Part shown: positions 3,053 through 48,053 of the stretch, in pieces
Position numbering within the stretch: position 1 is the first letter of the stretch
Layout: every line of letters starts with the position of its first letter
DNA from: a virus
DNA length: 48,053 bases
Virus record (IMG/VR): IMGVR_UViG_3300005056_000004
Direction: 5' to 3' (one strand)
The notes under the pieces: generated by a model
Told to the model about the DNA's origin: nothing
What the model saw: only the letters and a program-made list of their open reading frames with translations
The model's database searches: none
Position numbers and translations under genes: made by a program

Positions 3053-4210
3053 ATGAGTGTATTTAATGGAATGTCTGCAACGGATTTTTTATCTGATGCT
3101 GCTACAAAAGTAGGTTATTCAAAAGAGATAACAAAACAGGCAATGGCAAAGAGTAAAATCAAGCCATTTATAGCAAGAAGTACTAACGATATGACTTCTA
3201 TCATTAAGTCACATACAAAGACTTGTGAACAAGGCAACATAGTTTCTATTGCTCTTGCAGATGAACTTGTAGAGTCTGGTGCTACTGGTAATGTAACTCT
3301 TGACGCGAGTAGTGAAGAGCTTAAAGAGATTAAGCAATTTATCAAAGTTGATTCTTATCAGCATACTGTTCCCTCTACTGGAAATGTGGTTACACAAAGA
3401 AGTGCTAATGATTTTAAATCTAAGGCGAAATCTGCACTGACAAACTGGGAAACTAGAAAATTCGATAGAACTTTCTTCCATTTAATGAGTGCTGATTGTA
3501 CGAACATTGTTGCTTGTGGACATCACTTAGATGCTACTACTGCAAAGATAGCGACAGCAGATGTTTTAACAACTTCGGATGTTGAAGAAGCAAAAAGAAG
3601 AGCTGAATTAGGTATTGATGCTAAAGGTAATGGTGTTCCACCTCTCATTCCTATTCATACATCTACAAATGAGAACCTTGGTTACTATGAAGATGTTGAG
3701 TATTTTGTGATGCTTGTTGGGACAAACTCTGCTCGTAACATCAAAACAGACCCTAACTGGGCAGCCGCTCGTAAAGATGCTACCGAGAGAGGAAAAACAA
3801 ATCCTATCTTTACTGGTGCACTCGGGTTCTGGGATGGTGTACTTCTACTTCCAGCTAAAACAGACACAGAGCGAAACTCTGGTATTTTAACTTCTAAGTC
3901 GAACTTCAAAGGTTTTGGTAGTGTTAAGAAGTCTGATCTTTCTATCTATGCTGGTATTTCTGGACAAGAGACAGAAATCAACCTTTTCTTAGGTGCTGGT
4001 GCAGCTCAAATCGTTGTAGATATGGGTATTAGCTACTATGACTATGCAGCTAAAGATGATGTTCGTAGAATGGTTGCGGCAGTTGATAGAGTGTTTGGCA
4101 TGGCAAAGACTAAGTTTAGTGCAAGTGCAAATGATGGAATCCTTCAAGATAGTATCTTTGATGGTAAAGACTATGGTGTTATCGCAGTTGTAGCATCAAC
4201 TGGAAAATAA
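3053..4210 (+). CDS. Major capsid protein (resembles the N4 gp56-type capsid family by recollection)
   Basis: 385 aa with a strong RBS (AAAGGAA) and position after the scaffold-like gene. The segment GNIVSIALADELVESGATGNVTLDASSEELKEIKQFIKVDSYQHTV...QRS...ALTNWETRKFDRTFFHLMS matches my memory of the N4-family capsid signature. Confidence 0.7.
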   Translation: MSVFNGMSATDFLSDAATKVGYSKEITKQAMAKSKIKPFIARSTNDMTSIIKSHTKTCEQGNIVSIALADELVESGATGNVTLDASSEELKEIKQFIKVDSYQHTVPSTGNVVTQRSANDFKSKAKSALTNWETRKFDRTFFHLMSADCTNIVACGHHLDATTAKIATADVLTTSDVEEAKRRAELGIDAKGNGVPPLIPIHTSTNENLGYYEDVEYFVMLVGTNSARNIKTDPNWAAARKDATERGKTNPIFTGALGFWDGVLLLPAKTDTERNSGILTSKSNFKGFGSVKKSDLSIYAGISGQETEINLFLGAGAAQIVVDMGISYYDYAAKDDVRRMVAAVDRVFGMAKTKFSASANDGILQDSIFDGKDYGVIAVVASTGK

Positions 4211-4220
4211 GGAGTAATAG

Positions 4221-4631
4221 ATGGCTATTAAAGTAAAAAGAAAAAATCGTGAAATTAGAGATGGTGGTACTGTTACCGCTATCTTTACAAGTGCAGATGT
4301 TGGCACAACAGTAGACTTTATGGGTATCCCTGAGGGTTTTCGTATAGTAGATGTAAATGTTACAGTTGATACTCTGTTTAATGGAACAGATGGCACTACT
4401 AATGATAACAAGATCAGTGTTGGAATTGAGGGCGATTTAGTCCGCTTTATCCCTGCAACATCGGTAGATGCTGTTAAAGGTATTACTTTTAACAACAGAC
4501 AACTTACTGCTGTAAATTCTATGGCTATTGTCATTGATATTACTGGTAGTGGTAGTGTTGCTGCTACTACAGGTAGTGCTACCGTTACTGTAAGCTATGC
4601 GAAGTTACCTGCATCTAAGCAAGAGTACTAG
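4221..4631 (+). CDS. Small beta-rich structural protein (possible capsid decoration protein)
   Basis: 136-aa ORF 10 nt after the capsid gene with an AAGGAG RBS. Rich in T/V/G/S. Confidence 0.4.
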   Translation: MAIKVKRKNREIRDGGTVTAIFTSADVGTTVDFMGIPEGFRIVDVNVTVDTLFNGTDGTTNDNKISVGIEGDLVRFIPATSVDAVKGITFNNRQLTAVNSMAIVIDITGSGSVAATTGSATVTVSYAKLPASKQEY

Positions 4632-21698: not shown

Positions 21699-21775
21699 CT
21701 GAGTATAGAAGTTTTTGTTTATTTTTTTAAATTCTTTGAAAGTTCGTATTTTAGGGGGTTTAAAGGATGTATAAG

Positions 21776-21822
21776 TGGTGGGTCCTATGTGACTCGAACA
21801 CATGACCACTCCGTTATGAGAC
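21776..21822 (-). other. attP core: 3' portion of a tRNA-Met(CAU)-like gene
   Basis: The minus strand reads ctcataa(loop)-cggag-tggtc-atgtg-TTCGAGT-cacat-aggaccc-a-CCA. This gives an anticodon loop with CAT, the 3' anticodon stem, a variable loop, a perfect 5-bp T-stem with TTCGAGT loop, the 3' acceptor strand and CCA. No matching 5' acceptor or D-arm lies upstream. It is adjacent to the integrase gene. Confidence 0.7.
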
Positions 21823-21902
21823 AAAAGCACTCATATCTACTTATATAGATTTACATATAAATCAACCTATCCAAGGGGTTTGTAATTCTATCTTAATATA
21901 TA

Positions 21903-21971
21903 TTTATCTATAATTATATATACGAAAGGAACACCCAAGGGAACACCCAAGTATATATAATTATAGATAAA
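21903..21971. repeat. 21-bp perfect inverted repeat (21903-21923 / 21951-21971) enclosing a GGAACACCCAAG x2 tandem (21928-21951)
   Basis: tttatctataattatatatac and its exact reverse complement flank gaaaggaacacccaagggaacacccaa. It sits 15 nt upstream of the integrase start. Confidence 0.8.
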
Positions 21972-21985
21972 GTAGGGATTATGTT

Positions 21986-23059
21986 GTGTCGATAAATAAA
22001 GATGATTATCCATTTCAAATTGAAACTGGGTTATGGGCAAATAAAAAATATACAGTTTTTTTATATAATTTCAGATTTGAAAAAAAGAGGTATCGAGCAC
22101 TTATAGACTTAACAGACAAAGTGGGTTGGAACAAAAAAGATAAAATCTTTACTGCTCGTGCTGAACTTATGAAGATAAAGAACGGAAAGAAAGATGCAGT
22201 GCTTAGTGACAAAGTAACTCTTGATGAGTTTATGAAAAGCTTTTTTGAACTTCGACCAGATACAAACAATACTAAAACTCGTAAGAGCCATTATGATAGA
22301 TACGTTAGTCCTATTTGTGGAATGAAAAGAGTTGTTGATATTCGGCAGCTACACATAAAACAGAGTATAAAGAGTCAAGAGGAACTAGGTCTTGCACCTC
22401 GAACTGTTAAACAAACGCTCGAAGCACTCTCCCCTGCTTTTAAAAGTGCTATTGCAAACAGGCTTATATCTTACAACCCTCTTGATGGTATAGTTATAAA
22501 GCTCCCAAAAACTAAAAAAATAGTAAGTGAAGCTGGGGTCGAACTTAGAAAGATATATAATGCGATATTTGCAGAGTTTGGAGATGATCCTTTTTATCTC
22601 TCACTTTTTCTCTTTGCACTTCAAGGTAGGAGGAGAGGAGAAATACTTACTCTTAAGTGGGAAGATATAAGTATAGACAACTCTTACTACATACTTCGTA
22701 ACACAAAGAACAATGAAGAGCAAAAGATTTTTCTAGCTGAGATTATCAAAGACAATTTAAAAGATATACCTCGTGTAAGTGACTGGGTTTTTACATCTCG
22801 TAGGACTGGCTCACATCTTGTTGATATTCGCAAGGTTACAGGCAGGCTAAAAAAGAGACTCAAAGATGAGAATTTTGGCATACACTATTTGAGAAATGTC
22901 ATTGTTTCGGCTATGGCTGAGAAAGGTTTTGATAGTATGCATCTTAGCGGTGCTTTAGGTCACAACGACCCTAACACTATAAAGAAGTATCTCACTATGA
23001 ACTATTTGAAGTCTAGTGAGATGGCTAGTGGGGTTATTGATGGGATTGTTAAGAAGTAA
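21986..23059 (+). CDS. int: Tyrosine integrase
   Basis: 357 aa with a GTG start. The C-terminal catalytic region has RRRGEILTLKW (Arg), HYLRNVIV (HxxR) and LGHNDPNTIKKYL (His and Tyr). It is next to a tRNA-derived att core. Confidence 0.85.
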   Translation: MSINKDDYPFQIETGLWANKKYTVFLYNFRFEKKRYRALIDLTDKVGWNKKDKIFTARAELMKIKNGKKDAVLSDKVTLDEFMKSFFELRPDTNNTKTRKSHYDRYVSPICGMKRVVDIRQLHIKQSIKSQEELGLAPRTVKQTLEALSPAFKSAIANRLISYNPLDGIVIKLPKTKKIVSEAGVELRKIYNAIFAEFGDDPFYLSLFLFALQGRRRGEILTLKWEDISIDNSYYILRNTKNNEEQKIFLAEIIKDNLKDIPRVSDWVFTSRRTGSHLVDIRKVTGRLKKRLKDENFGIHYLRNVIVSAMAEKGFDSMHLSGALGHNDPNTIKKYLTMNYLKSSEMASGVIDGIVKK

Positions 23060-28330: not shown

Positions 28331-29389
28331 TTAGATTTCCTCAATTGTGATTTTGTATCTTTGTGTAGTAGTGACTTTTGGAAAGTCATTAGGAATATTT
28401 AATTCCCAATATTGGAAATAACAATCTGTTGTATACCAAGAGTTTCCATCCTCTTCATTTCCGCTAACATCTCTTTCATTTATAATCCACTTCTTTTTTT
28501 TCACTTTTCCAAAATTATCACAAAAATCACTGTTTTCTTTAAGTGTCACTGCTTTAAACAAATATTTTTTATCTTTTGCTTCTTCGTGATAATGCTTACG
28601 ACCTAGCTCCAGGGCTTCATCTCTGTTAGTCGCTCTTAATCTGTGCCCACCGCCATGCGGTACACCTTTTTTATGTTGATAACTGATGATGTATAACTCT
28701 TTCTTTTGAACCTCTGGTACTTCATCACTCGTCATTTTCAAGTCTCTGTACTCAGCAATGCCATCTCTTGTAATGAACTTAGTGAGATACATACGATAAA
28801 CTTCTCTTTGCATCGGTTTATCTTTAACTCTTGATATCTCTTCAAGAACAGAGAGTCCTATGTCGTGCTTCGCTTCTTCTAAGTCTTTTACAATACTCTT
28901 GTCCAGTCGCAGGCATCCAAAAGCTTTAGAGAGATATGACTGTGACTTTCCTATCGCCTTCGCTAAGTCTCTCTTACATTCATAATTTCCACTAGCTTGT
29001 AGCTTTCCTATATGAACTGCAATTTCAAAGTCTGTTAAATCTTCCCTTTGAATATTCTCTATAAGTGCCAACTCTAAGACTTTGTCATCATCTACACTTA
29101 TGATATGTGCTTTGATGGTAGTCATGTCTGTCCACTCTTTATGAGCACGATATCTTCTTTCTCCACTTACTATCGTATAGCCATCACCGCGTTTAACTAC
29201 AACAATCGGCTGGAGTAGTCCGTTGTCTTTTATATCATGACCGAGTTCCATCAAAGCTACAGTCTCAAACTCCTTTCTTGGCTGGTCTGGGTTCGGGTGT
29301 ACCTTTGAAAGTTGTAACTCTGCAAAATCACCCATGCCATTCGTCCGCGTTTTGTTGTGGGTTACTTTATCTATCGCTGATAAGTTCAT
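28331..29389 (-). CDS. parB: ParB/Spo0J-family partition protein (N-terminal ParB nuclease-like domain, uncharacterised C-terminal half)
   Basis: LLQPIVVVKRGDGYTIVSGERRYRAH and LALIENIQREDL are classic ParB box motifs. It overlaps the parA stop by 23 nt. Confidence 0.85.
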   Translation of the reverse strand: MNLSAIDKVTHNKTRTNGMGDFAELQLSKVHPNPDQPRKEFETVALMELGHDIKDNGLLQPIVVVKRGDGYTIVSGERRYRAHKEWTDMTTIKAHIISVDDDKVLELALIENIQREDLTDFEIAVHIGKLQASGNYECKRDLAKAIGKSQSYLSKAFGCLRLDKSIVKDLEEAKHDIGLSVLEEISRVKDKPMQREVYRMYLTKFITRDGIAEYRDLKMTSDEVPEVQKKELYIISYQHKKGVPHGGGHRLRATNRDEALELGRKHYHEEAKDKKYLFKAVTLKENSDFCDNFGKVKKKKWIINERDVSGNEEDGNSWYTTDCYFQYWELNIPNDFPKVTTTQRYKITIEEI

Positions 29390-29987
29390 CTCGCAAGCTC
29401 CTTATCTCATTTTTAGCTATTTCGTTTTTTGTGTCAAAAACGCTAGAGCCGACTCCTAGAGTTGTTTTATAAACCTTTCGCGTTCTTATGACAGAGTCAA
29501 GGAGTTTATATTTATTTCCTATTACTTCTTTTATGATTGAAAAGTTACGAGTGAGCGGATGAATGTTGTTAAGTACTATGTTGAACTCAGTCTCTCCAAG
29601 TATGAGTTCATTTATGATGCCCTCAAATGTTTTGAAACCGAGAACTTCCGTAACAGAGTCGCTTATGGGGATGAGCACTTTATGAGAGCAGTCTATAGCT
29701 GTTCTGTTGATGTCGCTATCGAAACCGCCGACATCGACTATATAGAAGTCCGGTCTGTTCGCATCTGCGTTTGTTATAAGTAGTTCTAAAACTTCACTTA
29801 CTGTAGTGGGTTGTAAGACTTCTATGTCATTTAAGCCTCGTATCTCATTTATGAAGTGTAGAGTCTGCTGGAAGTCTAAGTCTACTAACGCGACTGTTTT
29901 CCCTATCTCTTTTAGAGAGTGTGCTAAGTGCCAAGCTAAAGTACTCTTACCGACTCCGCCTTTCGTGTGTGCTACTGTTATTGTCAT
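29367..29987 (-). CDS. parA: ParA/Soj-family partition ATPase
   Basis: The deviant Walker A is TKGGVGKST. FYIVDVGG is Walker B-like. 206 aa. Confidence 0.85.
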   Translation of the reverse strand: MTITVAHTKGGVGKSTLAWHLAHSLKEIGKTVALVDLDFQQTLHFINEIRGLNDIEVLQPTTVSEVLELLITNADANRPDFYIVDVGGFDSDINRTAIDCSHKVLIPISDSVTEVLGFKTFEGIINELILGETEFNIVLNNIHPLTRNFSIIKEVIGNKYKLLDSVIRTRKVYKTTLGVGSSVFDTKNEIAKNEIRSLRDELISDR

Positions 29988-30078: not shown

Positions 30079-30672
30079 TTACCACTTTCTTAAAGTTTTC
30101 CCTCGGGAAATTTCCTCGTGTGTAACTGTTGCATATCTTGCTGTAGTGCTTATGCTCTTGTGTCCTATATCTTGTCTTATATGCTCTAGCGATAAGCCTA
30201 GCTGATGAGCACTGGTGATGTAGCCTGCTCTAAAACTATGAGTAGAATATAAATTTCCCAACACTCTATGTATGAAAGAGTTCATGTTGAGCTTGAGAGC
30301 ACTTACAGTCATCGGCTTGTCAGAGTTGTTTTTCGCAAAGAGATATCCATTGTCTAAAAACATCATTCTTCTTAACATCTCCACTTGAACACCATCACTA
30401 TCGAAGCTAATGAGCCTTGTCGTTTTTGTCTTCGTGTCATTAGATAAGGAGTGCTCATTTGTAAGTATCATCTGCACTACTTCCTCTTTCGTTACATCTA
30501 TAATCTCGCTAATACGACACCCAGTGAGATACAGAAGTGTAAAAGCATTTTGCAGTTTTACTTTAGAACTCGCTTGTAGTGTTATACTCTTGTGCGCAGC
30601 ATTCATAAGTCGCTCATACTCTTTTTTGAGGATCGGCTTTTTTGGTCGTGCTGTTCCTGTTGGTCTTGCCAT
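30079..30672 (-). CDS. Small tyrosine recombinase (197 aa, Xer/FimB-sized)
   Basis: LTGCRISEI (Arg), HSFRAGYITSA (HxxR) and IGHKSISTTARY (His and Tyr). No N-terminal arm-binding domain. Confidence 0.8.
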   Translation of the reverse strand: MARPTGTARPKKPILKKEYERLMNAAHKSITLQASSKVKLQNAFTLLYLTGCRISEIIDVTKEEVVQMILTNEHSLSNDTKTKTTRLISFDSDGVQVEMLRRMMFLDNGYLFAKNNSDKPMTVSALKLNMNSFIHRVLGNLYSTHSFRAGYITSAHQLGLSLEHIRQDIGHKSISTTARYATVTHEEISRGKTLRKW

Positions 30673-40931: not shown

Positions 40932-42062
40932 ATGAGTTTTATAAAAAATGTTAATGCAGTAGCAGCAGACTTGGCAGGCGGAGCAGCATCAAAAATAGCA
41001 ATTATAAACAAAAACATAATTTCATTTAGTGCAAAAGTTATTTCTAGCCTTAAAGAGCTAGACACTCACACAACAGCAAAAGAGAATCAACTAGACACTT
41101 TCAACACTGCCAAAAAAGCAGAACTAGATACTCACACAACAACAAAAGAGAAGCAGCTAGACACTTTCAACACTGCTAAAAAAGCAGAACTAGACACTCA
41201 CACAACAACAAAAGAGAATCAACTAGACACTTTCAACACTGCGAAAAAAGCAGAACTAGACACTCACACAACAACAAAAGAGAATCAACTAGACACTTTC
41301 AACACTGCGAAAAAAGCAGAACTAGACACCCACACTGCAACAAAAGAGACTCAACTAGATACTTTTAACACTGCGAAAAAAGCAGAGCTAGACACTCACA
41401 CTGCTGGAATAGTAGATGATGTTCATGCTACTAAAACAAAAACTCATAGATACTTACTAGAAGTAGAAGAAAATGCTTATGATGTAGATAAAAAATTTAC
41501 ATATATAAAAGATATAGAAGTTCGTAAAGTAAAAGCATTAGATGAAACAACAGAGATACGAAAATCTGATTTAGATAAACATACAAATATAAAAAAAGTT
41601 GTATTAGATAACTATGTTGATGATACTAAAAAAGCAGAACTAGATACTCACACTGTAGCAAAAGAGAATCAATTAGATGATTTCAACACTGTTAAAAAAG
41701 CAGAACTAGACACTCACACCACAACAAAAGAGACTCAATTAGATGATTTTAACACTGTTAAAAAAGTAGAGCTAGACACTCACACTACAACAAAAGAGAC
41801 TCAACTAGACACTTTCAACACTGCCAAAAAAGTAGAACTAGACACTCACACAACAACAAAAGAGAATCAGCTAGATAACTACGAAGCCACAAAAGAACTA
41901 GAATTAAATGATTATAAAGTTATAAAAATAGATGAAATTGAAGTGTATAAAAACAAAAAAGTTGATGAGATTAATAATCAAGTAAACACTATTTACTCTG
42001 ACACATTTAAAGTTGCACGAAGATTTAAAATGCAGACTTTCGGCATAGGCTTAAATTTATAG
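40932..42062 (+). CDS. Fibre-like protein built from 22-aa (66-nt) tandem repeats
   Basis: KKAELDTHTTTKENQLDTFNTA units are present in two arrays. Confidence 0.65.
   Translation: MSFIKNVNAVAADLAGGAASKIAIINKNIISFSAKVISSLKELDTHTTAKENQLDTFNTAKKAELDTHTTTKEKQLDTFNTAKKAELDTHTTTKENQLDTFNTAKKAELDTHTTTKENQLDTFNTAKKAELDTHTATKETQLDTFNTAKKAELDTHTAGIVDDVHATKTKTHRYLLEVEENAYDVDKKFTYIKDIEVRKVKALDETTEIRKSDLDKHTNIKKVVLDNYVDDTKKAELDTHTVAKENQLDDFNTVKKAELDTHTTTKETQLDDFNTVKKVELDTHTTTKETQLDTFNTAKKVELDTHTTTKENQLDNYEATKELELNDYKVIKIDEIEVYKNKKVDEINNQVNTIYSDTFKVARRFKMQTFGIGLNL
41055..41402 (+). repeat. 66-nt in-frame tandem repeat array 1 (5 full units plus a partial one)
   Basis: Units start at 41055, 41121, 41187, 41253 and 41319, with a partial unit at 41385. 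Confidence 0.9.
41637..41900 (+). repeat. 66-nt in-frame tandem repeat array 2 (4 units, the last degenerate)
   Basis: Units start at 41637, 41703, 41769 and 41835. Confidence 0.85.
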
Positions 42063-42116: not shown

Positions 42117-43637
42117 ATGGGTTTAAAAAGCACAAGAGATACACTTGTCAGTAGGATTGAAGAAGTTGCTGGCACAAGTACAGACCTTGAACAGTTAAGC
42201 TTTGCAGGGGCAAGCTTACAAAAATTAGTCGATATCAACTTTGATATTTTACCAGAAGATACAGCATACAATATAGGTGTTCCAGGAACAATGGGATATG
42301 GTGTATCTGCAATGCACGATGAGTTAGTTCCAGCTGGGTATATGAAACTATCTAGTCATGATGATGTTGCTCATCCAAATTATGGTTGTGTGATAGATTT
42401 GAATGGAAGTGTATTTGAGTATATTGCTCCTTTTTTCTTCAAAATGATTGGAAATAGTATTACTACTAGCCCTATATATGTAAGTGGATATGTAAAACCT
42501 CGTGCTTTTTACGACTCGCCAAATGGATTTTTACACTTTAAATACATGGCTGGTAATGTTGGTGGAAAACTTGTTTCTAAACAAAATATCGACCCAGTAT
42601 CAACATCAACTTCACATAACCCTATTGGGAATCTATTATCTGCTCCATCAAATAATTATGGTGGATTTGTTGATGCTTGTAAATCAGCAGGCTACAAAGC
42701 AACTACTATATTTGAATGGACTGCACTACAACTTTTAGCACTTGCTCAGTCGCAAAGTGGTGCATCTTCTGCACTATGTGCATTTAATGATGTTGCACCA
42801 TTTTTTCCAAAAGGAAATCTTGGAAATGCTTTACACGATGTAAATGATACAAGTGTAACTTTTACCGGTAGCGGCTATTCAAACTGTGCTTTGACAGGTA
42901 GTGGTTCAAACTTTGCAAAGACAACACACAATGGTCAGAACTCCGGTATAGCAGATATGAACGGAAATATGTGGAAGATTGTAACAGGACTTACATACTT
43001 AGCAAAAAATAATGCGACTTGTGCAATAAATACAAAAGATGTATCTATGCCTAGCCACGGTTTAGCAATTAATGATGTAATTTACTTCGGTGGTACACCA
43101 TCTAGTGGCTCTACTTATAACACTGCTGCTTATACAGTAACCGCAGTAACTGATGGCAATAACTTTACAGTAGGAACTGTACTTCAAAGAGCTATCGTGT
43201 CTACTGACGGAGTTTATAGTTCAAGATATTTCAGAATTTTAAAAACTTCTGTGAATCCACATGATCTTACAAGTGTAAATCTACTTGATGATTCTAAATA
43301 TGATTTGCTAAATCTTACTGGAATGATTGATTCAAATACTGGAAGTACTTATTTTGGGAATGGAGCAGAGACTGTTCTTAACTTTTCTACAGATACAAAT
43401 TCAATAGCATACAAAGCTGGAAGTGTTGGAATTCCAACTCCAACAGGAACAAGTGCATCTGGAGCTACTATATTTGGGAATGACTATATTTACAAATATA
43501 TGAGACATGGTCTCGTGCCGATTGTCGGTGGGTATTGGAATGACACTTCCAATGCTGGGGTTTTCGCTCTTGATTTGTACGGTGCTTCGGCTAATTCGCA
43601 CAGCGCTGTTGGTGGTTTCGCCTCTGTTTCCTTGTAG
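42117..43637 (+). CDS. DGR target protein: receptor-binding tail fibre with a C-terminal C-type-lectin-fold variable region
   Basis: 506 aa. IADMNGNMWKIV resembles the CLec/FGE-type DMxGNVWEW motif. The C-terminus VGGYWNDTSNAGVFALDLYGASANSHSAVGGFASVSL carries the VR. Confidence 0.85.
   Translation: MGLKSTRDTLVSRIEEVAGTSTDLEQLSFAGASLQKLVDINFDILPEDTAYNIGVPGTMGYGVSAMHDELVPAGYMKLSSHDDVAHPNYGCVIDLNGSVFEYIAPFFFKMIGNSITTSPIYVSGYVKPRAFYDSPNGFLHFKYMAGNVGGKLVSKQNIDPVSTSTSHNPIGNLLSAPSNNYGGFVDACKSAGYKATTIFEWTALQLLALAQSQSGASSALCAFNDVAPFFPKGNLGNALHDVNDTSVTFTGSGYSNCALTGSGSNFAKTTHNGQNSGIADMNGNMWKIVTGLTYLAKNNATCAINTKDVSMPSHGLAINDVIYFGGTPSSGSTYNTAAYTVTAVTDGNNFTVGTVLQRAIVSTDGVYSSRYFRILKTSVNPHDLTSVNLLDDSKYDLLNLTGMIDSNTGSTYFGNGAETVLNFSTDTNSIAYKAGSVGIPTPTGTSASGATIFGNDYIYKYMRHGLVPIVGGYWNDTSNAGVFALDLYGASANSHSAVGGFASVSL
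43510..43623 (+). repeat. DGR variable repeat (VR)
   Basis: Gapless 114-nt alignment to 44088-44201 with 101 identities. 12 of the 13 mismatches lie opposite TR adenines. Confidence 0.9.
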
Positions 43638-43649
43638 TAGGGAACGATA

Positions 43650-44054
43650 GTGAACGGGGTAAGCAAAGGTGAAGTTTCTTTAAATAGAAAGTTTGTGGAA
43701 ATGATGAAGTTACTTAATGTGTATCTCAATCATTTTCCACGATATGAAAAATTTGCACTCTCTAATGATATACGAAATACAGCTTACAGAGTGTATGACT
43801 TAATAACAGAGTGCCAAAAGAGATACTATAAAAAGAGTTCACTTACTTCTCTTGATATAGAACACGAGAAGCTTAGAATGCAGATAATCCTAGCGAACGA
43901 ACTCGGATATTTTGCATTTAAAGATGGTTCTAAAAACTCTAAACTTGCACGACCTGAACATAGATTTTTAGCTATCTCTCAACTTATTGATGAGATAGGT
44001 AGGATTATAGGTGCTTGGATAAACAAGCTAAGAAAGACAAACGAGTTTACATAA
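43650..44054 (+). CDS. avd: Accessory variability determinant (Avd, four-helix-bundle family)
   Basis: NHFPRYEKFALSNDIRNTAYRVYDLITEC resembles the Avd/S23-like FPKxEKYxL...R signature. It is small and basic and lies between VR and TR. The true start may be ATG 43701, giving 117 aa. Confidence 0.75.
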   Translation: MNGVSKGEVSLNRKFVEMMKLLNVYLNHFPRYEKFALSNDIRNTAYRVYDLITECQKRYYKKSSLTSLDIEHEKLRMQIILANELGYFAFKDGSKNSKLARPEHRFLAISQLIDEIGRIIGAWINKLRKTNEFT

Positions 44055-44087
44055 AACTCAATGGGCTACTGCATTAACATGATTTGT

Positions 44088-44201
44088 GTCTCGTGCCGAT
44101 TGTCGGTGGGAATTGGAATAACACTTCCAATGCTGGGGTTTTCGCTCTTAATTTGAACAATTATTCGGCTAATTCGAACAACAATGTTGGTGGTTTCGAC
44201 T
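44088..44201 (+). repeat. DGR template repeat (TR), noncoding
   Basis: Intergenic between avd and the RT gene. It contains 26 adenines, 12 of which are substituted in the VR. Confidence 0.9.
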
Positions 44202-44296
44202 TCGTTCTAACCTGAAATATCTTAAAGATAAAATTGGAACAAAGGGATGTAGAGTCCAGCTATAAGCGAAATTTTAAAGAGGAGATTTGTTAGAGT

Positions 44297-45343
44297 ATGA
44301 GAAATATTAAGTATGGACTAGAAATTCCAAATACCTCGAAAAGATACGGTGGACTGTACCAGCTTGCTTTTACAAAAGAGAACCTTTACAAAGCTTATTT
44401 AGAAGCTAGAAAGGGTAAGAGAAATAAGGTTGGTACATATTTATTTGAAAAAAACATAGGTGAAAACATTGATAACTTATTTGAAGAGTTACAGTGTTTT
44501 TCATATAAGCCTAGAGAGTATAGAACTTTTACAGTTTATGAACCAAAAGAGAGAGTTATTAAGGCACCTCATTTTAGAGATTTAGTAGTGCAGCACTCTA
44601 TTTATAGAGTGATTTATAATATTTTCAATAAGTCATTTATAGATACTAGCTTTGCTTGTAGGAAAAATGGTGGAACTCATAAGTGTAGTGTTTATACCCA
44701 GACTCAGATGAAGAAATATAATGGAAATCTTTACTTTATCAAGCTTGATATTAGAAAGTTTTTTTACTCTATAGATAGAGGAATACTTAGAAAGTTATTT
44801 GAGAAGAAAATAAAAGATAAACAAATGATAGACATTATGACTCTGTTTACAGAAGATGATAGTTCTAGTGTTGGCATACCAATTGGTAATCTTTTAAGTC
44901 AGCTATATTCTCTCATATATCTTAACGAGTTGGATCACTTTGTAAAAAGAGAACTTAAAATAAAAAGCTATGTTCGTTACGTAGATGATTTTGTGCTCAT
45001 CGGTCTCACTCTTGATGAAGCAAAAATAGCAAAAGAGAAGTGTGAGAAGTTTGTACAGGACAAATTAAATCTTGAATTATCTCATTGGCATATACAGAAG
45101 ATAAAAAGAGGTATTAACTTTGTCGGATATAGGACATGGAAAAATGTAAAGTTTGTTAGAAAGCACTCTTTATACAAGTTCAAAAGAGCAACAAAAAAAC
45201 AAAAGGTCGATTCGATTATATCTTTAATCGGTCATGCAAAAGGTACAAAAAGTTTGAGTTATTTCAAAAATATACTTGAAAACTATATGCCTTATTATAA
45301 AAATTTAATACCGACTAGGAGTCGAAAATGTTTAGATATGTAA
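44297..45343 (+). CDS. DGR-type reverse transcriptase
   Basis: 348 aa. The catalytic motif is YVRYVDDFVLIG (YxDD). The DGR-clade hallmark is IPIGNLLSQLYSLIYLNELD (IGxxxSQ). IKLDIRKFFYSI is motif A. Confidence 0.9.
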   Translation: MRNIKYGLEIPNTSKRYGGLYQLAFTKENLYKAYLEARKGKRNKVGTYLFEKNIGENIDNLFEELQCFSYKPREYRTFTVYEPKERVIKAPHFRDLVVQHSIYRVIYNIFNKSFIDTSFACRKNGGTHKCSVYTQTQMKKYNGNLYFIKLDIRKFFYSIDRGILRKLFEKKIKDKQMIDIMTLFTEDDSSSVGIPIGNLLSQLYSLIYLNELDHFVKRELKIKSYVRYVDDFVLIGLTLDEAKIAKEKCEKFVQDKLNLELSHWHIQKIKRGINFVGYRTWKNVKFVRKHSLYKFKRATKKQKVDSIISLIGHAKGTKSLSYFKNILENYMPYYKNLIPTRSRKCLDM

Positions 45344-45732
45344 AATATAACAAGATACAGAAACCTGATACAGTTTTAGAGTTTAGAGGCGGTGATGATG
45401 ATACAGTCAAAGTTAATTACTTTGATGTTGATGTTGTTAGTATTGAAGCGACACTTGAAGCTGACATTGATGCTTTAGTAGCACAACAAGCTAGTGAAAT
45501 AGGGTGTACTATTATAACTCAAGCAGAGTTTAAAACATTGGTATCTGGAACTGCACAGTTGAAAAGAATCCGAGAAGTTGTTGCATCTGAAATATCTAAA
45601 AATTACACGCTTTCTGATGAAATTGGAATTAGTAGAAGAGCAATTGATGATGCAAAGAGAGTCACTTATGATACTTATGTTAAAACTTGTACATCAAAGG
45701 GAACATCTCTTAAAGCACTTGTAGGGTACTAA
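45328..45732 (+). CDS. Hypothetical protein
   Basis: 134-aa ORF overlapping the RT 3' end by 16 nt. Confidence 0.5.
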   Translation: MFRYVKYNKIQKPDTVLEFRGGDDDTVKVNYFDVDVVSIEATLEADIDALVAQQASEIGCTIITQAEFKTLVSGTAQLKRIREVVASEISKNYTLSDEIGISRRAIDDAKRVTYDTYVKTCTSKGTSLKALVGY

Positions 45733-47106: not shown

Positions 47107-47664
47107 ATGAAAAATTCACAATCAGATAAGTTATCTAGGATTTCTATAGTTAAATCTGCTGGACTTCAAGCTCTAATAGATATTTTAAACAATACAACGG
47201 TAGGTACACTTAGTAGTTCTATAGATAGTAATAGTGCTGACATAGTAACTATAAATACATCTATTACAAATATAAATACTCAAGCTGCTACTAATGCAAA
47301 TGACATAGCAGCTATAAATACATCTATTACAGATATAAATACTCAAGCTACTACTAATGCAAATGACATAGCAGCTATAAATACATCTATTACAGATATA
47401 AATACTCAAGCTACTACTAATGCAAATGACATAGCAGCTATTAATGCTTCCATACAGACCCTTACAGATATAGACACACTTATCAACAGTAAGATAGACT
47501 CAATAGCACTGCTATTTGGTATAGTATTTAACACAGATGGAACTATAAGTACTCAAAACTATACAGCACACACACACTCTTACTCTGATGTAAGCATAGA
47601 AGATACAGCAGATGCAACAGGCTTGACAAACACTGATACTAAAACAACACAAGGAGTTGCATAA
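47107..47664 (+). CDS. Fibre-like protein with 21-aa (63-nt) tandem repeats
   Basis: NANDIAAINTSITDINTQATT occurs three times. Confidence 0.6.
   Translation: MKNSQSDKLSRISIVKSAGLQALIDILNNTTVGTLSSSIDSNSADIVTINTSITNINTQAATNANDIAAINTSITDINTQATTNANDIAAINTSITDINTQATTNANDIAAINASIQTLTDIDTLINSKIDSIALLFGIVFNTDGTISTQNYTAHTHSYSDVSIEDTADATGLTNTDTKTTQGVA
47251..47439 (+). repeat. 63-nt in-frame tandem repeat x3
   Basis: Units start at 47251, 47314 and 47377. Units 2 and 3 are identical. Unit 1 differs at a few positions. Confidence 0.9.
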
Positions 47665-48053
47665 TGGCAACAATTATCACGAAAGAGATAGAGAATATAT
47701 TTGATACATTCTTAGAAAAGACAATAGCAAAACTTACAACGCTTTATAAAGATACAAACATGGAAGATGAGGCTTTTGCAACTATATCCGGTGCTGCTAT
47801 TACATCAGCAATGAACTCAAGTGTCAATGCTCACGACTCACTGAAGAGAGGTCAGCTCATAGATAAACAGATTGCTACAGAAGCTAAAAAGACTCTCGAC
47901 ATAGTAAGCTTAACAGCAGTTCGTGATGCTCAGTCAGATAAAGACTTACTTGTAAAACAAGAGCAGATAGATATGAGCGTTTTACAACAAGACACAGAAG
48001 TTAAAAAAGCTTTAGACATAGCAAGCTCAACAGCGGTTCGTGATGCTCAGTCA
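47664..48053 (+). CDS. N-terminal part of a wrap-around structural gene (294 aa after circularisation, continues into 1-594)
   Basis: ATG at 47664 follows AAGGAG and overlaps the TAA stop of the upstream fibre gene. The frame stays open to the window end and is in phase with ORF 19-594 through the 99-nt overlap. Confidence 0.7.
   Translation, partial: MATIITKEIENIFDTFLEKTIAKLTTLYKDTNMEDEAFATISGAAITSAMNSSVNAHDSLKRGQLIDKQIATEAKKTLDIVSLTAVRDAQSDKDLLVKQEQIDMSVLQQDTEVKKALDIASSTAVRDAQS
47955..48053. repeat. Terminal overlap, right copy (identical to 1-99)
   Basis: Same as the left copy. A 99-nt overlap is typical of a circular contig from a k=99 de Bruijn assembly (inference). A true direct terminal repeat cannot be excluded. 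Confidence 0.95.

Follow-up and report, generated by a model that had tools for sequence, protein, structure and literature searches.

The viral record IMGVR_UViG_3300005056_000004, analysed here as one stretch of 48,053 nt (the window), carries a diversity-generating retroelement (DGR) at positions 42,117 to 45,343. A target gene that ends in a variable repeat (VR) is followed by avd, an intergenic template repeat (TR) and a reverse transcriptase (RT) gene. This target(VR)-avd-TR-RT order is the gene order of the BPP-1 prototype, and we regard the element as a functional DGR with a probability of about 0.93. That reading is carried by the anatomy of the cassette, by the homology of its proteins, by covariation of its RNA elements and by natural turnover of the VR that is restricted to positions templated by adenine. 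The coordinates of all features are collected in Table 1.

TR and VR align without gaps at an offset of 578 nt, with 13 mismatches in 114 positions. An initial annotation, made from the letters of the window only, had listed this alignment, the mismatches and the adenines concerned, and our realignment reproduced every one of them. The bias is strong: 12/26 TR adenines differ from the VR, compared with 1/88 non-adenines (Fisher p=2e-8). The homology is limited at 43509/44087 on the 5' side and ends after 43623/44201 on the 3' side, which places the end of the VR 14 nt ahead of the target stop codon. When each TR adenine was allowed to be any base, the pattern matched only the VR and the TR itself in the 48-kb window (chance expectation 0.00), and no second VR was found in the window with up to 3 mismatches allowed.

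The substituted adenines had also been assigned to codon positions 1 and 2 of the VR reading frame, and this is true of all TR adenines (26/26, with 0 at position 3). The codons bearing them are eleven AAY codons plus ATT, ACT and TAT. Because adenines occupy codon positions 1 and 2 only, the TR allows ~15^11 x 4^3, by our own calculation roughly 5e14, protein variants without stop codons.

We compared positions 42117-45343 of the window (3227 nt) with five contigs from other samples, public consensus assemblies standing in for reads. These near-isogenic contigs differ from the window at 17, 17, 15, 15 and 1 positions. Within the VR lie 17, 17, 13, 13 and 1 of these differences, within the TR none, and elsewhere in the 3227 nt only 0-2. 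All VR differences except the one at 43584 are at A-templated positions (31/32). In the four VR versions obtained in this way, the window included, 19/25 mutable adenine positions vary, and adenine has been changed to C, G and T. The VR of the contig closest to the window (L005) deviates from it by a single base, again at an A-templated position. The sole mismatch at a non-adenine, TR T44162 versus VR G43584 (T to G), is limited to the window and L005, and the other near-isogenic VRs keep T as in the TR; G43584 is a rare non-adenine change.

The same pattern was seen at the protein level. The 90%-identity protein cluster of the target has six full-length members, of which one is identical to the window protein and one carries S496G. 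The remaining four show 10-12 residue differences each, and apart from one P440T all of these are located in residues 469-497 at codons with TR adenines. For cluster member P0123, a look-up gave no record. Since the VR changes are restricted to A-templated positions, the TR is invariant and the flanks are near-identical, the DGR is evidently active in nature and has been renewing its VR while the remainder of the genome stayed fixed.

When the RT was compared with proteins of known structure, Bordetella bRT (8ub7) was the best match by far (E=9e-54), followed by a chain deposited as 'retron-type reverse transcriptase' (5e-22) and a group II intron RT (1.5e-20). The motifs IGNLLSQ and YVDD, from which the initial annotation had deduced a DGR-type RT, are present and align with IGSLTSQ and YMDD of bRT. 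The bRT residues that contact template, deoxynucleoside triphosphate and metal have been described by cryo-electron microscopy (cryo-EM; bioRxiv 10.1101/2023.10.23.563531), and all eleven bRT residues that we checked (K29, F66, R74, I76, D138, I181, G182, S186, Q187, D215 and D216) have identical counterparts in the window RT. Identity as a retron, group II or defence RT was rejected on NCBIfam scores, which stayed far below the cutoffs for group_II_RT_mat (109.6 bits, cutoff 300), Drt3a (49.7, cutoff 200) and Retron St85 (47.3, cutoff 235). Judged by its sequence, the RT is of the DGR type, and retron and group II RTs are more distant from it than bRT. The Avd-like four-helix protein proposed earlier proved to be an Avd adjoining the TR, with matches to Pfam bAvd above threshold (65.5 bits, cutoff 40) and to phrog_3206 'Avd protein of DGR' (E=6e-20). 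Both reading frames, RT and Avd, are intact.

We mapped the window onto the RNA architecture of BPP-1 described in the same cryo-EM paper, after its numbering had been verified on the BPP-1 sequence (L092). The predicted primer duplex between 44200-44210 in the TR region and 44234-44244 in Sp contains 9 Watson-Crick pairs, 1 G.U pair and 1 mismatch in the window. In 29 relatives a mean of 9.28/11 positions is paired, compared with 7.04 for swapped partners (maximum 7.93 in 1000 trials) and 3.3-5.8 for shifted registers, and several positions of the duplex show multiple pair types across the relatives. RNAalifold, run on the 29 relatives, paired the two strands of the putative stop duplex (44064-44075 with 44246-44257) unprompted, with compensatory changes at most pairs. 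Downstream of it, the pairs of the stem-loop GCT-ATA-AGC covary and GCGAAAT is nearly invariant in the 29 relatives. A 3-bp CCU:GGG helix also suggested by RNAalifold gave way to the crossing TR:Sp duplex, which is backed by the register and partner-swap controls. Where the window has the small stem-loop 44218-44230, most relatives have a 4-6 bp stem of differing sequence. No Rfam family was found in 43400-45400, a permissive scan giving a chance snoRNA match only.

On this comparative sequence evidence, the BPP-1 RNA elements, TR:Sp primer duplex and stop duplex, are recognisable and covary across relatives. The small stem-loop followed by GAA is likewise shared with BPP-1. The BPP-1 'cPRT Stop', which consists of an avd:Sp duplex, GC-UUCG-GC and then G79 A80 A81, has its putative equivalent at the matching position of the window; its upstream strand lies inside avd in BPP-1 but in the 33-nt avd-TR spacer in the window. 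In the consensus, '...A-GGG' faces 'G-A-C-U' of the TR, and therefore A44243 would be the analogue of Sp A56 and G44244 that of G57. By this analogy we infer A44243 as the predicted priming adenosine and C44200 as the base predicted to be templated first.

At the 3' end of the repeat, 14 nt free of adenine are identical in VR and TR. This stretch is G/T-rich in the window, compared with (GC)14 in BPP-1. In each of the 16 relatives inspected, the TR continues after it with A (G-A-CT) and the VR with C (G-C-CT), a boundary that Pseudomonas phage Bise and a prophage of Helicobacter ganmani share. The order of A-free identity, fixed VR-C/TR-A and subsequent divergence is conserved in all relatives inspected. 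This agrees with the boundary between IMH (initiation of mutagenic homing, in the VR) and IMH* (in the TR) that the initial annotation had expected here, as far as can be read from sequence. C43621 is fixed across relatives and constant among the near-isogenic VRs; therefore, the twelve adenine substitutions counted earlier comprise 11 mutagenic substitutions and one fixed difference. By sequence comparison, A44199/C43621 is the first fixed IMH/IMH*-type difference and not a product of mutagenesis. Positioned beside the predicted cDNA start, the fixed TR-A/VR-C position might, on a tentative and rather doubtful reading, be the key self/non-self mark that spares the TR from targeting.

For the region past the VR, Guo et al. 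(2011; PMC3240598) described a hairpin/cruciform rule, according to which a 7-10 bp GC-rich stem with a GRNA loop on the sense strand is located 4-34 bp after the VR; BPP-1 requires an 8-bp GC-rich stem (PMC3240598). The window has a GATA loop at a fitting distance (GAAA in BPP-1), whereas its stem consists of two Watson-Crick pairs followed by tandem G.A mismatches. The stem is likewise reduced to two Watson-Crick pairs in the closest relatives of the window.

The element is nevertheless part of a conserved 12-mer, which reads GAACGATAGTGA in the window; most relatives have GAGCGATAGCGA. Exactly one copy of the pattern GARCGRYAGYGA, on the + strand, is present in 45/91 fetched loci, and in all of these but one (L044) it is placed just downstream of the VR. 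Its loop is GATA, GGTA or GACA among relatives, and the loop-closing pairs covary (G-C/C-G in most relatives versus A-T/C-G in the window). Many relatives have an outer stem of variable sequence beyond the G.A mismatches, and others form perfect 5-10 bp stems with GATA, GACA, GAGA or GGTA loops. Altogether, a GRNA loop was found 12-29 nt past the VR in 50/52 unique loci, with stems of at least 5 Watson-Crick bp in 16 of those. Literature searches on the 12-mer and on the accessions of the samples returned nothing relevant.

A different hairpin, gtttcc-N8-gggaac at 43626-43645, had been pointed out after the VR. The sequence is there, but the hairpin is weak: its DNA folding free energy (dG) is -2.2 kcal/mol (z -1.44), 22/200 shuffles fold equally well, and by inspection of the sequences the pairing is lost in relatives. 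This hairpin, which also runs into the 5' arm of the core, was rejected as the functional element.

It is a tentative and rather doubtful idea that the AT-rich Campylobacterota phage clade has lost the stable stem and kept the core GA-(G/A)C-GRNA-G(C/T)-GA, with homing reading the sequence or a non-canonical G.A mini-hairpin instead of an extruded GC-rich cruciform. If true, this core would be read out directly by RT-Avd, the DGR RNA or a host factor.

The AlphaFold2 model of the target protein (56 homologues) reached a predicted local distance difference test score (pLDDT) of 83 and a predicted template modelling score (pTM) of 0.85. Its best matches among PDB folds are TaqVP (5vf4; E=7e-9, prob 1.0) and Mtd (1yu4; E=3.5e-3), both of them C-type-lectin DGR variable proteins, although their identity to the window target is only 11-16%. 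The C-type-lectin fold that had been suggested for the C-terminus, where the motifs DMNGNMW and GGYWND are present, is supported by this model. At the sequence level 5vf4 is matched weakly, over residues 238-296 and 457-495, which correspond to the conserved core and the VR segment. The window protein differs from TaqVP and Mtd in its helical N-terminal segment and in an insert at residues ~300-360, which in the model search matched endosialidase-type beta-barrels. With 506 aa and this inserted beta-barrel, the target exceeds Mtd (381 aa). Matches to tailspikes and depolymerases were obtained as well. As a side observation, residues ~228-283 (window ~42798-42965) are among the most conserved stretches of the family, with P228, P231, K232, G233, D241, D244, G261, K268, T270, N272, G273, Q274, G277, D280 and G283 invariant. 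Despite this invariance in and around the stretch, residues 233-275 have a pLDDT below 50. Perhaps this region consists of loops that bind a metal or a ligand, or forms the interface of an oligomer.

Judging from the model and the gene neighbourhood, the target is probably a phage receptor-binding or tail-fibre tip protein. It could instead be a lysis-associated, superinfection-exclusion or host-surface-modifying protein within an otherwise genuine DGR. Its gene sits between terminase and lysis cassette, away from recognisable tail genes, it has no functional family match, and C-type-lectin DGR targets, e.g. TaqVP, occur also as non-virion cellular proteins. We consider such a role improbable, though it is the most credible of the alternatives. 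The order target-avd-TR-RT plus further small genes is the BPP-1 layout, in which the target Mtd is the tail-fibre tip, the upstream neighbour of the target is repeat-rich and fibre-like, the beta-barrel resembles that of phage endosialidase tailspikes, and, the genome being circular, the target lies ~6 kb upstream of the capsid module.

Several points weigh against the picture of a functional DGR with a receptor-binding target. Avd scores 70.7 bits with the NCBIfam equivalog DivGenRetAVD, under the 80-bit cutoff. The stem-loop 44218-44230 is weak (-1.3 kcal/mol, ViennaRNA), and the post-VR stem has no predicted stability (dG 0), compared with the GC-rich stem needed by BPP-1. Neither Pfam nor PHROG assigned a function to the target, for which NCBIfam was also uninformative, and its receptor-binding role is based on fold similarity and gene neighbourhood only. 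Moreover, the turnover of the VR was deduced by comparing consensus assemblies, each from a different sample.

The degenerate post-VR hairpin and the single non-adenine mismatch at T44162/G43584 would also suit a decayed, inactive DGR, with the TR/VR differences being a fossil of past activity or the result of drift. This is very unlikely, given three further VR versions, on contigs that are otherwise identical across 3.2 kb, that changed at A-templated sites only under an invariant TR, the one-base difference between window and L005 at such a site, and the intact RT and Avd frames with the checked bRT residues kept. Even less credible is an origin of the VR differences from allele recombination or assembly chimeras of co-occurring strains instead of mutagenic retrohoming, because, although the contigs are metagenome assemblies and some scaffolds have N gaps nearby, recombination or chimerism would limit neither 31/32 VR differences to TR-adenine positions nor the differences in the flanking 3.1 kb to 0-2, and the same A-bias is seen in about 55 independent loci.

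For a functional DGR of this architecture we propose the following course of events. An RNA transcribed across the TR and its two flanking spacers, avd-TR and TR-RT, would fold by pairing of 44234-44244 with 44200-44210 and of 44246-44257 with 44064-44075. The RT-Avd complex would then prime cDNA synthesis in cis, probably from A44243, and copying would begin at C44200 or A44199. The TR would be copied faithfully except at adenines, where random bases would be inserted. By homology to BPP-1, the cDNA would replace 43510-43620 of the VR in the target gene, and this replacement may be guided by the A-free homology, by the GRNA element and by an IMH-like sequence, which departs from the TR at C43621 and beyond. 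The resulting variants would be displayed on the ligand-binding face of a protein with predicted C-type-lectin fold, most likely the receptor-binding protein.

The cassette of target, avd, TR and RT with the same spacing and an A-biased TR/VR pair was found in 56/92 sequences scanned (the window and 91 fetched loci). These sequences stem from Campylobacterota, Gamma-, Beta- and Alphaproteobacteria, Bacteroidota, Ignavibacteriota, Planctomycetota and others. The initial annotation had considered the genomic context of the DGR notable; this was not upheld, as the cassette recurs across phyla, including a Helicobacter ganmani prophage with portal and capsid relatives. A DNA search with the cassette against 50,697 phage records gave no match. 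With BPP-1 (mtd-avd-TR-brt), the element shares the gene order, small genes after the RT, a VR at the 3' end of the target gene, Avd, and adenine-specific mismatches (18/22 in BPP-1). Both phages are, moreover, temperate and encode an integrase. The two RTs are 34% identical, and there is no DNA similarity.

The closest RT in the phage collection (52% identity) is that of the isolated Pseudomonas phage Bise (OR683401.1; L093), which has the same cassette order, GACT (TR) versus GCCT (VR) boundary and spacer design. Its repeats at 2516-2631 and 3230-3345 have mismatches at adenines in 9/9 cases. Unlike the window, Bise has a perfect 6-bp post-VR stem, GGGTGC-GGTA-GCACCC, and it differs further by its GC-rich genome and Pseudomonas host. 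The record annotates only a 'four helix bundle protein' and a 'reverse transcriptase family protein', without a DGR label. The Helicobacter ganmani prophage BK070120.1 (L097), which has a Campylobacterota host, is distant overall, with relatives of the RT (37%), portal (30%) and capsid (22%). Between its repeats at 3459-3571 and 4242-4354, 10/10 mismatches are at adenines, and the A/C boundary is the same, but unlike the window it has an intact 9-bp stem with a GATA loop after the VR. All its cassette genes are annotated as hypothetical, again without a DGR label. Within the cassette family, a contig of an Atribacterota metagenome-assembled genome (MAG; L035) represents a two-target DGR, in which one TR (2367-2478) serves two VRs (31-142 and 1812-1923) with 18/18 and 19/20 mismatches at adenines.

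Table 1. Position of the DGR components, predicted RNA elements and other features in the window.
Feature	Position	Strand	Remarks
DGR target gene, 506 aa	42117-43637	+	VR at C-terminus
VR	43510-43623	+	3' end of target gene; mutagenised part 43521-43606
A-free 3' homology stretch	43607-43620	+	TGTTGGTGGTTTCG; 14 nt, identical in VR and TR; G/T-rich
Post-VR element GAAC-GATA-GTGA	43642-43653	+	12-mer GAACGATAGTGA; loop 43646-43649; overlaps avd GTG start (43650)
avd, four-helix-bundle accessory variability determinant	43650-44054	+	Pfam bAvd, phrog_3206
Predicted stop duplex, upstream strand	44064-44075	+	avd-TR spacer; RNAalifold; analogue of avd strand in BPP-1 'cPRT Stop'
TR	44088-44201	+	intergenic; 26 adenines
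Predicted template:primer duplex, TR-side strand	44200-44210	+	CTTCGTTCTAA
Small stem-loop TATCT-TAA-AGATA (predicted)	44218-44230	+	position of BPP-1 Avd-binding stem-loop
Predicted Sp primer strand	44234-44244	+	TTGGAACAAAG; pairs with 44200-44210
Predicted stop duplex, Sp strand	44246-44257	+	RNAalifold pairing with 44064-44075
Stem-loop GCT-ATA-AGC (predicted), then conserved GAAAT	44259-44267, 44268-44272	+	RNAalifold, covariation
DGR reverse transcriptase, 348 aa	44297-45343	+	Pfam RVT_1; phrog_1423 E=1e-101
Polyvalent protein, 4066 aa	8797-20997	+	Eco57I-type methylase, ResIII/SNF2 helicase, Helicase_C, LPD38 'large polyvalent protein' domains
Tyrosine recombinases (two)	21986-23059 / 30079-30672	+ / -	
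ParA/ParB partition pair	28331-29987	-	
Tandem-repeat proteins (two)	40932-42062 / 47107-47664	+ / +	repeat units

From an exact 99-nt direct repeat at its two ends (1-99 = 47955-48053), the window was recognised as a complete circular genome of 47,954 bp; its G+C content is 35%. The gene inventory given earlier (N4-type capsid, partition genes, giant polyvalent protein) was right, family matches being found for its members. The capsid protein has a sub-threshold match to the N4-gp56 family and a match to Pfam Phage_capsid_3, the portal is P22-like, and distantly related structural genes are found in Helicobacter prophages. Further genes encode a primase, a DnaB-like helicase, an anti-repressor, a terminase, a holin and an endolysin. 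The polyvalent open reading frame (ORF) makes up a quarter of the genome and directly follows the portal-proximal genes. A 134-aa ORF (45328-45732, +) without family match shares its first 16 nt with the end of the RT gene and is kept between RT and holin in 5/5 near-isogenic contigs examined.

With two tyrosine recombinases alongside ParAB, the element could integrate or be maintained as a plasmid-prophage. Contigs L095 and L096, which are independent of each other, start ~200 nt upstream of the first integrase, and their start points hint at a possible attachment (att) site at about 21700-21980. A host junction was sought by looking up the integrase with 10-kb flanks, which gave phage DNA only. 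The flanking repeat genes contain tandem repeats of 66 nt (22 aa, x5.3), 66 nt (x3.8) and 63 nt (21 aa, x3.3). Scaffolds L001 and L003 have 100-N gaps inside the 40932-42062 gene, so that the repeat copy number is not comparable between strains; L002 and L005 match the window exactly across the ~900 nt that they cover, in which only the second of the repeat arrays is included. The nearest genomic relative of the target is from an uncultured Sulfurimonas MAG (74% identity), which is consistent with the G+C content of the window, and the host is probably an environmental sulfur-oxidising member of the Campylobacterota, Sulfurimonas.

The element is a textbook example of a well-known system. The class of DGRs is large and already known, a recent survey cited in bioRxiv 10.1101/2023.10.23.563531 having counted about 31,000 of them, and one further phage DGR changes little. 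The comparative by-products, i.e. the G.A core, its degeneration in the AT-rich clade, the A/C base and the covariation, mostly confirm published expectations. The value of the window DGR is practical. Its VR is available in four natural versions on 48-kb circular genomes that are otherwise nearly identical, a clean natural record of adenine mutagenesis, and covariation in the cross-phylum alignment of the cassette family backs the RNA elements observed by cryo-EM in BPP-1. The conserved post-VR core and the fixed A/C position are testable candidates for the steps of target recognition and cDNA integration. Finally, the element adds a DGR-bearing temperate phage for what are probably environmental sulfur-oxidising Campylobacterota.

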